64,000 nt of DNA from assembly GCF_003019035.1 (NCBI RefSeq), contig NZ_CP027447.1, one strand, 5' to 3'. A program made the position numbers and the translations under genes. Origin of the DNA: Escherichia coli. GTDB lineage: Bacteria > Pseudomonadota > Gammaproteobacteria > Enterobacterales > Enterobacteriaceae. The notes beneath the pieces were generated by a model that worked only from the letters and a program-made list of their open reading frames with translations, did not search any database and was not told the origin of the DNA. Shown here in pieces: positions 17,292 to 21,590 of this stretch (position 1 is the stretch's first letter; every line of letters begins with the position of its first letter).

Positions 17292-18685
17292 GCGGTACCC
17301 TCACGACGCGGTGCGCGTTTGCGTGGACGACGAGTACGACGACGCGGTGACGGTTCTTCATCCAGTTCGTTAAGCATCCCTTTTTGGTCTGGCGGCGCGG
17401 AAACCTGGAACTCACCCCACCATTTCACCAGACGTTGCAGTTCAGCGTTACGCTCAACTTCGGCTCGTAAGGCCAACAGGTCGTATGCCGCACGGAACTT
17501 AGGATGCTCCAGCAGTTTCCATGCGCGTTTTCCCTGACGACGGGACATACGCAACTGCAACTGCCAGATATCGCGAGTTAGCGTAGTCAGACGTTTCGGG
17601 ATCGCCAGTGAACGGCAGGCTTCGTCCAGCACGTCGTTCATCGCCAGTGCGAAAGCGTCGTGATAGGTCAGGCCGCTCTCCTGAGCAATTTTCTGTGCCG
17701 TCTCCAGCAGTGGATACCAGAACATGGCGGCAAACAGGAACGCCGGGTTCACGCGCATATCGTTATGGATACGCGTATCGGTATTCTTCAGCACCTGTTC
17801 AATGATCCGCTCCATCGGGCTGTCGCCATTTTCCGTGAAGTAGCGGGTAATGGTCGGGAACAGCGGCTGGAACAGATGATATTCACACAGCAGCTTATAA
17901 GTTTCGTAACCGTAGCCCGCTTGCAACAGTTTCAGCGATTCTTCAAACAGACGTGCCGGTGGGATATCGTTCAGTAAGGTTGCCAGGCGTGGGATCGGCT
18001 CGGCGGTTTCCGGGCTGATGCGCATGCCCAATTTGGCGGCAAAACGAACCGCGCGAAGCATCCGTACCGGATCTTCACGGTAGCGCGTTTCCGGGTTACC
18101 AATCAGACGGATAACGCCGTCTTTCAGATCCTTCATGCCGCCAACGTAATCACGGACGGTAAAATCTGCCACGCTGTAATACAGGCTGTTGATAGTGAAA
18201 TCGCGGCGCTGGGCGTCTTCTTCGATGGAGCCGAAAATGTTGTCGCGCAGCAACATACCGTTTTGCCCGCGTTGGGAGGTCGTGCGGTCGCTGACGTTAC
18301 CTTCGTGATGTCCACGGAAGGTCGCAACTTCGATAATCTCCGGGCCAAACATCACATGAGCCAGACGGAAACGGCGACCCACCAGGCGGCAGTTACGGAA
18401 CAGTTTGCGCACCTGCTCTGGCGTGGCGTTGGTGGTCACGTCAAAATCTTTCGGCTTTTTGCCAAGTAACAGGTCGCGCACGCCGCCGCCAACCAGCCAG
18501 GCTTCGTATCCCGCTTTATTGAGCCTGTACATTACCTTCAGGGCATTTTCACTGATATCTTTGCGGGAAATAGCATGCTGCTCACGCGGGATCACCGTCA
18601 CCTGTGGACGGGCGACTGCCTGTTCAGCCTCGCTTTCCTCGCGGCTTAGCACCTTGCGGCAAAAATTAGCGACTCGGGTAAAAAT
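17288..18685 (-). CDS. pcnB: poly(A) polymerase I
   Basis: ORF track 17288..18706. Mature N-terminus (I)[21 protein letters not shown] begins at an AUU codon (18685..18683) preceded by SD gaggtg; nucleotidyltransferase motif [10 protein letters not shown]...DFD. Confidence 0.92.
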
Positions 18686-18744
18686 AGTACACCTCGGTAG
18701 TGTCAAACATCATTCAGGACAAAAAAATAGCGGCTAATCATAGC

Positions 18745-19671
18745 TCAGCATGACGCATTTGAGAATGTTGAATTTACAATTGCCGACTCAGGCACGGCAG
18801 TCAGCGTCCAGTTTTTGACGGCTGACTGAAGGATTTGCTCGACGCTGAAATCCTGCCAGTGTGTTTCTACCTGCTGACCCAGAAAATGAAGTGCCGCGAT
18901 TAACACCGGGCGCGGATCGCCTTTCGGCAACGCAGGCGCATGATTCTGCTTGGAAAGTTTAGCGCCTTGTGTGTTAAGCGCCAGCGGTAAATGAATGTAA
19001 TCTGGCACTTTCCAGCCAAAAAGCTGGTACAGCGAGATTTGTCGCACTGTCGGTTCAATCAAATCTGCCCCACGAACAATTTCTGTGACGTCCTGGAAGT
19101 GATCATCGACCACCACCGCCAGGTTATAGGCAAACAAACCATCACGACGATGAATAATAAAATCTTCTTGCGCCAGTTTTTCGTCGGCGTGAATAATTCC
19201 GCGTAGTTGATCAGTAAACTGCGTGACCGGATGCAACTGCCGAATTCGCACAGCCGCGTTGTCTGGTCCATGATGCAAATCCCGGCAATGACCGTCGTAA
19301 ATACCGCCAATGCTTTGAATACGCGCACGCGTGCAGGTGCAGTAATAACTTAGTCCTTGCTCATATAACCAGGCGAGTGCTTCGCGATAGGCGTGGTGAC
19401 GTTGCGATTGCCAGAGAACGTCGCCGTCCCAGTGCAGGCCGTAATGTTCCAGCTGGCGCAGGATAGTCTCTGCGGCACCGGGAACTTCACGAGGCGGGTC
19501 GATATCTTCTATGCGTACCAGCCAGCGACCTTGCCGGGCGCGAGCCTGTAAATAGCTGCCAAGCGCGGCAATCAGAGAGCCAAAATGAAGCTCGCCGGAA
19601 GGAGAGGGGGCGAAGCGACCAATATAGTGTGTGTCTGTCATCTCTTTGAACAAAAAATAAGGCGGGAGCAT
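18745..19671 (-). CDS. gluQ: glutamyl-Q tRNA(Asp) synthetase
   Basis: 308-aa ORF; class-I synthetase motifs ELHFGS and KLSK. The first 10 codons overlap the dksA terminator, so initiation at 19641 ([10 protein letters not shown]) is plausible. Confidence 0.9.
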
Positions 19672-19679
19672 TTCCCGCC
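19652..19679 (-). terminator. rho-independent terminator downstream of dksA, upstream of / overlapping the gluQ start
   Basis: Minus-strand RNA: ggcggga-aaugc-ucccgcc followed by uuauuuuuug (forward stem 19661..19667 / 19673..19679, A-run 19652..19660). Confidence 0.65.
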
Positions 19680-19707
19680 TGTGGTAAACGTGATGGAACG
19701 GCTGTAA

Positions 19708-20163
19708 TTAGCCAGCCATCTGTTTTTCGCGAATTTCAGCCAGCGTTTTGCAGTCGATGCACAGATCGGCTGTCGGGCGCGCTTCCAGACGGCGAATACC
19801 AATTTCAACACCGCAGGATTCGCAGTAGCCGAAATCTTCGTCTTCCACTTTTTTCAGCGTCTTCTCGATCTTTTTGATCAGCTTACGCTCGCGATCGCGG
19901 TTACGCAGTTCGAGGCTGAACTCTTCTTCCTGGGCTGCACGGTCTACCGGGTCCGGGAAGTTGGCTGCTTCATCCTGCATATGTGTAACGGTGCGATCGA
20001 CTTCATCCCTGAGTTGATTACGCCATGCTTCCAGAATACGACGGAAGTGCGCCAGCTGGGCTTCGTTCATATACTCTTCGCCCGGCTTCTCCTGATATGG
20101 CTCCACCCCAGCGATGGCGAGAATACTCAGGGACGATGTTTTACGGTTTTGCCCTTCTTGCAT
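19708..20163 (-). CDS. dksA: RNA polymerase-binding transcription factor DksA
   Basis: ORF 19708..20181; start at [26 protein letters not shown] (20163) with SD aaggaga; C4 zinc finger [25 protein letters not shown]. Confidence 0.95.
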
Positions 20164-20340
20164 GTTGCTTCTCCTTAACACGCACTATCGATCCCCATGT
20201 TCGGGGGAAAAATGAGGCCGCTATAAATAGCAGATGCTTTTCCGGATAGCAATTATCTAAACGTAACACTTGACAACTGTGTGAGGAAAAGCGTATTTGC
20301 GCACGCGACCAGAATGTAAATTAACCAGTTACTTACTCTA

Positions 20341-21590
<1,250 letters not shown>

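Follow-up and report, generated by a model that had tools for sequence, protein, structure and literature searches.

The second in-frame ATG, downstream of the dksA terminator hairpin, as the start codon of Escherichia coli gluQ

Translation of gluQ (gluQRS/yadB) in Escherichia coli starts at the second of two in-frame ATG codons downstream of dksA (position 19641), and this can be regarded as settled: the start codon is not ambiguous, as a sequence-only reading of the locus had held it to be, since Edman degradation, tetracycline-inhibited ribosome profiling (TetRP) with N-terminal COFRADIC proteomics, a further N-terminomics study and a comparison of 80 species all favor this codon. The first ATG lies in the loop of an intrinsic terminator hairpin, and, given translation from the second, the 10-residue extension that it would add to the protein is an annotation artefact. 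All coordinates below refer to the window, i.e., the whole stretch of 64,000 nucleotides of E. coli contig NZ_CP027447.1 that was analyzed. The features needed for the argument are the following.

19708..20163, minus strand: dksA coding sequence (151 aa), from the PGAP annotation of SCU-301 mapped to the window; stop codon TAA at 19710..19708
19660..19680, minus strand: intrinsic terminator hairpin AGGCGGGA-AAUGC-UCCCGCCU, 8 bp with a 5-nt loop (from sequence, fold, conservation and Shigella stem mutants)
19669..19671, minus strand: first ATG, in the hairpin loop, start of the 308-aa open reading frame in the MG1655/UniProt annotation and not the functional start (in frame only in E. coli and E. 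albertii)
19652..19660, minus strand: terminator U-tract UUAUUUUUU (from sequence; the K-12 Term-seq 3' end maps inside it)
19642..19659, minus strand: A/U-rich leader without a Shine-Dalgarno (SD) sequence, from the hairpin to the second ATG (UAUUUUUUGUUCAAAGAG; anti-SD duplex +0.3 kcal/mol)
19639..19641, minus strand: second ATG, the functional gluQ start (79 of 80 species; Edman, TetRP, N-terminomics, PGAP and PDB)
18745..19641, minus strand: gluQ coding sequence, 298 aa, tRNA glutamyl-Q(34) synthetase (PGAP, NF004312, PDB 1NZJ)

We consider it very probable that the account of this locus holds as a whole, with transcription from the dksA promoters, a leaky terminator, read-through and a start at the second ATG. 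The architecture, the dependence on read-through and the true start are already known, having been published in 2012 and since confirmed genome-wide, and essentially all of the Term-seq, initiation-site profiling and reporter-fusion experiments that the sequence-only reading had proposed are in the literature. These experiments come from Shigella and E. coli K-12 and not from the window strain, in which the regulatory region is identical and GluQ residue 5 differs.

The locus and its annotation

The gene order is sfsA-dksA-gluQRS-pcnB in the PGAP annotation of E. coli SCU-301, whose sequence agrees with that of the window at 100% identity across the 1.55 kb that was compared. This 1.55-kb segment is present in 5424 of the 5426 complete E. 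coli genomes, and it is 95.7% identical in the K-12 derivative DH5alpha; from the dksA stop to the second ATG, the window is identical to K-12 MG1655. The segment at 18700..20250 has an identity of at least 99% to just 24 of the 5424 E. coli genomes and of about 95.7% to K-12, and, as judged by this sequence comparison, the window strain, or its dksA-gluQ segment at 18700..20250, belongs to a minority lineage. At residue 5 of GluQ, the window strain shares H with E. albertii, whereas K-12 and Shigella have Q.

The identity of the gluQ product is indicated by matches to the NCBIfam equivalog NF004312 (613.9 bits against a cut-off of 453) and to TIGR03838 (377.5 bits against a cut-off of 276.7). 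The 298-aa form is the one seen in the crystal structures PDB 1NZJ and 4A91, both of which cover 298 of 298 residues; residues 1-298 of 1NZJ align to residues 11-308 of the long gluQ open reading frame, and GluRS homologues align to that frame only from the IGRFAPSP strand on. Annotations differ in the start that they adopt: in the RefSeq PGAP annotation of six E. coli strains, among them SCU-301 and DH5alpha, gluQRS is 897 nt (298 aa) long and begins at the second ATG, the MG1655 reference record b0144 runs for 927 nt from the first ATG, and UniProt P27305 is given as the 308-aa form in a 2026 N-terminomics table (PMC13245402). The description of the hairpin as overlapping the annotated gluQ start is thus right for the MG1655 record and wrong for the PGAP-annotated genomes.

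A few observations concern the neighboring genes. The PGAP start of pcnB is an ATT at 18685 (18683..18685, minus strand) and not the upstream TTG at 18706 given in the mechanical list of open reading frames. A noncanonical AUU start that limits the translation of poly(A) polymerase I is known for E. coli pcnB. A sigma-70-like element, TTCTCA-17-TATGAT, at 18737..18765 on the minus strand overlaps the gluQ stop and lies just upstream of pcnB, where pcnB promoters are expected; overall, the scan that yielded it was at chance level. On the other side of the locus, the sfsA-dksA interval contains a second terminator-like hairpin, CTGCTATTTATAGCGG followed by CCTCATTTTT, at 20218..20233 on the minus strand, ahead of the dksA start. 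Adams et al. (PMC7815308) record, in one condition, a Term-seq 3' end classed as "orphan" at MG1655 position 160652, which maps to about position 20211 of the window; the hairpin may serve to terminate sfsA transcripts or act as an attenuator if the dksA leader is long.

Termination and read-through between dksA and gluQ

The hairpin stem begins 27 nt past the dksA stop, consists of eight pairs of which six are G-C, and is followed by UUAUUUUUUG on the minus strand, so that the GC-rich stem-loop and adjoining U-tract of an intrinsic terminator are both in place. The sequence-only reading had found these features and placed them correctly to within 1 to 3 nt; it put the stem 30 nt past the dksA stop, and its stem of 19661..19679 is the same one lacking the closing A-U pair, with the full stem-loop running from 19680 to 19660. 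The isolated hairpin has a predicted folding energy of -14.5 kcal/mol, and the fold of the 83-nt region gives a z of -2.6 relative to shuffled sequences. A scan for terminator-like patterns returned four sites in 2.5 kb against 3.0 expected, which is not significant alone; we hold this hairpin not to be a chance occurrence because its core is kept at the same position in 77 of 80 species and an RNA 3' end formed in vivo falls in its U-tract. Searches of 18500..20500 with the Rfam covariance models at E≤1 recovered no relevant match, the sole hit being a chance snoRNA match within dksA.

The activity of this element has been studied in Shigella with lacZ fusions (Caballero et al. 2012, BMC Microbiol 12:226, PMC3542578). 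With the dksA promoters left out, a fusion spanning dksA +58 to the gluQ start yielded no more than baseline β-galactosidase, removal of the intergenic region with the dksA promoters kept raised lacZ expression about 10-fold above the native construct, and disruption of the predicted stem raised it more than 2-fold. The conclusion reached in that study was that gluQ lacks its own promoter and is expressed by read-through from the dksA promoters. Our own promoter scan did yield a sigma-70-like element, TTCAAA-18-TATATT, at 19650..19621 on the minus strand, which matches the consensus at 9 of 12 positions and which, as a promoter belonging to gluQ, would make read-through unnecessary. However, the scan gave two sites against 2.2 expected by chance, transcription from this one would begin downstream of the second ATG, and the promoterless fusion stayed at baseline (PMC3542578); we find a separate gluQ promoter scarcely credible and keep to transcription from the dksA promoters.

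The position of termination has been mapped by Term-seq in K-12 (Adams et al. 2021, PMC7815308), where a 3' end with 3,097,035 average reads was recorded in LB at an OD of 0.4 at MG1655 position 160097 on the minus strand. By coordinate mapping, this is position 19656 of the window (...CCCGCCUUAUU), in the U-tract. The same study gives the end a Rho score of 1.16, places it outside Rho termination regions and assigns it an intrinsic score of 7.47 against a threshold of 3; DirectRNA-seq coverage around it is 250 upstream and 62 downstream, and 250 and 72 with bicyclomycin (PMC7815308), a ratio (250/62) that is only a rough gauge of read-through. On a sequence identical to that of the window, K-12 thus forms a Rho-independent 3' end inside the U-tract in vivo. 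The sequence-only reading had named Term-seq as a way of checking its terminator, and this strong published end, together with the rise in lacZ expression on deletion or stem disruption, bears out both the terminator and, with the baseline activity of the promoterless fusion, the dependence of gluQ on read-through from the dksA promoters.

The 3' ends left by intrinsic termination usually lie 7-9 nt past the stem. The mapped end lies merely 4-5 nt past it and may therefore reflect exonuclease trimming after termination. A more radical reading would make 19656 a processing or stabilizing end, at which the hairpin blocks 3'-to-5' exonucleases after an endonucleolytic cleavage; the short distance from the stem agrees with this, and Term-seq cannot separate termination from trimming. 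Against it stand the canonical intrinsic terminator architecture with its score of more than twice the threshold, the approximately 4-fold fall in coverage downstream and the response of transcriptional lacZ fusions to both deletion and stem mutation (PMC3542578). We consider a purely processed end very improbable and take the hairpin to be a genuine but leaky terminator. Based on the 62/250 coverage ratio and the 10-fold difference in lacZ expression, the fraction of transcripts that read through would be roughly a quarter to a tenth.

The start codon of gluQ

The longest gluQ open reading frame, of 308 aa, begins at the ATG at 19671..19669 within the 5-nt loop, and the next in-frame ATG sits 18 nt past the stem. 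Direct evidence on which of them is used comes from three independently published sources. The N terminus of C-terminally His-tagged GluQ was found by Edman degradation to be TDTQYIGRFAP, the residues that follow the second ATG, and the same authors drew attention to the location of the first AUG in the terminator loop and to its absence from E. fergusonii (Caballero et al. 2012, PMC3542578). The protein sequenced came from T7-driven overexpression in BL21(DE3), with the predominant band alone being analyzed (Caballero et al. 2012, PMC3542578), and a minor long form of GluQ would be compatible with this experiment taken alone. TetRP subsequently assigned yadB a new start at +30, MG1655 position 160082, and N-terminal COFRADIC proteomics in the same study recovered the yadB peptide TDTQYIGR (Nakahigashi et al. 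2016, PMC4909307). A 2026 N-terminomics study lists gluQ as an "N-terminal truncation (10aa)" with the peptide MTDTQYIGR (PMC13245402). No N-terminal peptide of the long form is listed for gluQ in either of these two N-terminal proteomics data sets (PMC4909307, PMC13245402). Clear initiation at 19671, an outcome that the sequence-only reading had entertained, is contradicted by the TetRP and N-terminal proteomics data, which place the start at 19641 (PMC4909307). A literature search combining gluQ with ribosome profiling gave no match in main texts, and the gluQ entries of these data sets come from supplementary tables; PMC9023263 names dksA in its reference list alone.

We compared the region across 80 species-level loci (L003-L082) of the Enterobacteriaceae, from Escherichia to Klebsiella, Cedecea and Buttiauxella, with GluQ identities of 75-95%. 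If the second ATG is taken to be one located 6-8 codons ahead of the motif GRFAPSPSG, 79 of the 80 species have it, the exception (L081) showing an odd upstream region; a conserved start codon and an N-terminal peptide that begins at it coincide. L081, from Buttiauxella sp. A111, is the sole locus without an ATG 5-9 codons before GRFAPSPSG, and its frame runs on upstream without a stop through 357 nt of unrelated sequence, pointing to an insertion or rearrangement that affects the 5' end of gluQ.

The first ATG has a very different distribution. An in-frame ATG at its position is found in E. coli and E. albertii only. No in-frame upstream ATG open to the second ATG exists in 65 of the 77 species scored, and an upstream ATG at -10 codons occurs in only two of the 77 (the window and E. 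albertii). At this position, E. whittamii carries ATA and E. coli AF16, a divergent strain, ATT; in Escherichia sp. MOD1-EC7003, the ATG persists but has been shifted out of frame by the loss of 1 nt from the U-tract. In several species, the second ATG is immediately preceded by a stop codon. The spacing between the stem core and the second ATG ranges from 12 to 29 nt and falls into frames 0, 1 and 2 in 21, 30 and 26 species, respectively, a spread that is incompatible with the stretch between the hairpin and the second ATG being coding. Neither the frame nor the start of a coding extension from the first ATG is therefore conserved in the orthologues. The origin of the codon can be traced to the hairpin itself: the stem in most genera is GGCGGGAG/CUCCCGCC with a loop of 3-4 nt, and in Escherichia, the top G-C pair is replaced by an A·C mismatch that opens the loop to AAUGC, of which the AUG of the first ATG would be a by-product.

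These data bear on the reading in which Escherichia uses both codons, with a minor 308-aa isoform made from read-through transcripts when the hairpin melts. Such dual sites are documented for some other genes (Nakahigashi et al., PMC4909307), and most E. coli strains retain the first ATG in frame, an identical 60-mer containing it being found in 4456 of 5424 genomes; the codon is also unpaired in the loop, with an SD-like AGG 6 nt upstream. That AGG, however, is buried inside the -14.5 kcal/mol stem, with a P(unpaired) of 0.06, and the loop would be conserved as part of the terminator whether coding or not. In a common E. coli variant, the putative 10-residue extension has N in place of K. The codon itself is missing from every genus other than Escherichia, in which E. 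whittamii, E. coli AF16 and MOD1-EC7003 have either lost it or have it out of frame. As the two N-terminal proteomics sets and the Edman data yielded peptides of the short form alone, we give dual initiation very little credence and retain the second ATG as the gluQ start.

This start is used although it has no SD sequence 5-9 nt upstream. In the window, the anti-SD duplex of the 18 nt before the second ATG has an energy of +0.3 kcal/mol, and the best value among the 77 species scored is -3.4 kcal/mol, against -9.2 kcal/mol, a strong SD, for dksA in all species scored. No obvious SD was noted at the gluQ start in the Shigella study either (Caballero et al. 2012, PMC3542578), and, given the lack of a good anti-SD duplex across the 77 species, SD absence is a conserved trait of gluQ. 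A weak second hairpin, in which the U-tract of the window is predicted to pair with AAGAGAUG and hide the second ATG (P(unpaired) about 0.1), was also considered; the median P(unpaired) of the second ATG over 79 species is 0.39, with widely scattered values, and this hairpin was rejected as a feature because it is not conserved.

Conservation of the stem and the expression of gluQ

A core of GGCGGG...CCCGCC occupies the hairpin position in 77 of the 80 species. In the 62 distinct sequences from these 77 species, the 12 core stem nucleotides (GGCGGG/CCCGCC) are invariant, and the flanks, the loop and the spacing vary. All six core pairs are unchanged in the pair counts, four sequences have G-C instead of A-U at pair 13-20, and 86.7% of the cells at paired positions are paired, against 50-59% in slid controls; a covariation test is uninformative for the core pairs given their invariance. 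Enterobacter-like species retain the stem with a poor U-tract (GUUACCGUU; GUUACCGUUGAUAUG), and their second ATG lies only 12-14 nt past it. As far as this alignment can indicate, conservation of the core stem exceeds the needs of a plain terminator. As a separate observation, palindromic, REP-like extra sequence (e.g., TGCCGGATGGCG...TTATCCGGAC) is inserted between the dksA stop and the hairpin at several loci of Citrobacter, Phytobacter, Enterobacter and Buttiauxella (L012, L017, L020, L025, L038, L054 and L082), which lengthens the spacer to 96-201 nt and leaves the hairpin and the second ATG intact.

One explanation for such conservation, which is compatible with the account preferred here, is that the hairpin is a conditional element that binds a protein or small molecule, or is subject to antitermination, and thereby allows more read-through into gluQ when cells are in stationary phase or stressed. 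The idea was raised by Caballero et al. themselves, who by reverse transcription-PCR (RT-PCR) found RNA spanning the intergenic region to increase 20-fold in stationary phase, against 1.3-fold for the dksA and gluQ RNAs (2012, PMC3542578); the invariant core between diverging flanks and loop, and the persistence of the stem beside the poor U-tracts of Enterobacter-like species, would suit it too. Yet the 20-fold change is unmatched in the gluQ RNA, the same authors found no riboswitch, and the locus matches no Rfam family. There is likewise no conserved antiterminator pairing, the upstream flank is not conserved, and an invariant G-C stem is equally expected from selection on terminator strength. 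We accordingly regard a conditional element as unlikely. Its most specific form, suggested by the 12 core nucleotides that stay invariant in 77 of 80 species even with a poor U-tract and by the 20-fold change in RNA with growth phase, is a conditional terminator whose exact stem is recognized by a trans-acting factor; this would raise gluQ read-through in stationary phase or stress and couple the glutamyl-queuosine of tRNA-Asp to the DksA/stringent-response state, a proposal that we hold to be improbable as it stands.

The explanation that we favor needs only a partial terminator. As the published experiments show, transcription begins at the dksA promoters, gluQ having none of its own; most transcripts end at the Rho-independent terminator at 19680..19652, and a minority continue into gluQ. 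Partial termination thus keeps the ratio of gluQ to dksA low. The read-through mRNA is then translated from the second ATG into the 298-aa enzyme, as both the published experiments and the conservation described above show, and the first ATG would be, from conservation and folding, a chance product of the Escherichia-specific loop AAUGC. Initiation at the second ATG is probably weak and may rely on the A/U-rich leader furnished by the read-through U-tract, and such SD-less initiation would limit the levels of GluQ-RS further.

The closest known system is the dksA-gluQ-rs operon of Shigella flexneri and E. coli (PMC3542578), which is the same locus, with the same gene order, a first ATG in the loop and a second ATG 27 nt downstream; the window departs from Shigella and K-12 dksA-gluQ by strain-level differences only (H versus Q at residue 5; 95.7% identity to DH5alpha). 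The recA-recX and rpsU-dnaG-rpoD operons likewise contain a Rho-independent terminator within the operon, past which a minority of transcripts reach a downstream gene needed at a low level, and dnaG resembles gluQ in its unusual ribosome-binding site, a comparison drawn by Caballero et al. (PMC3542578). The genes involved are unrelated, with no sequence relationship, and it is at gluQ that a spurious in-frame ATG in the loop misled annotation. In this respect, gluQ (yadB) belongs with the starts misannotated by choice of the longest open reading frame, being among the roughly 150 that were re-annotated by TetRP (PMC4909307).

The consequences of the wrong start extend to other analyses. It leads Term-seq pipelines to label the 3' end of the dksA terminator as "internal" to gluQ, which is how the end at 160097, lying 15 nt away from the gluQ start in the annotation, was classed (Adams et al. 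2021, PMC7815308), and with the stale 308-aa form still in MG1655 and UniProt, analyses of the gluQ untranslated region, ribosome-binding site and N terminus are 30 nt off. The comparison of 80 species supplies a nonexperimental argument for the 298-aa form of the enzyme, and it also shows that the absence of an SD sequence at gluQ is conserved.
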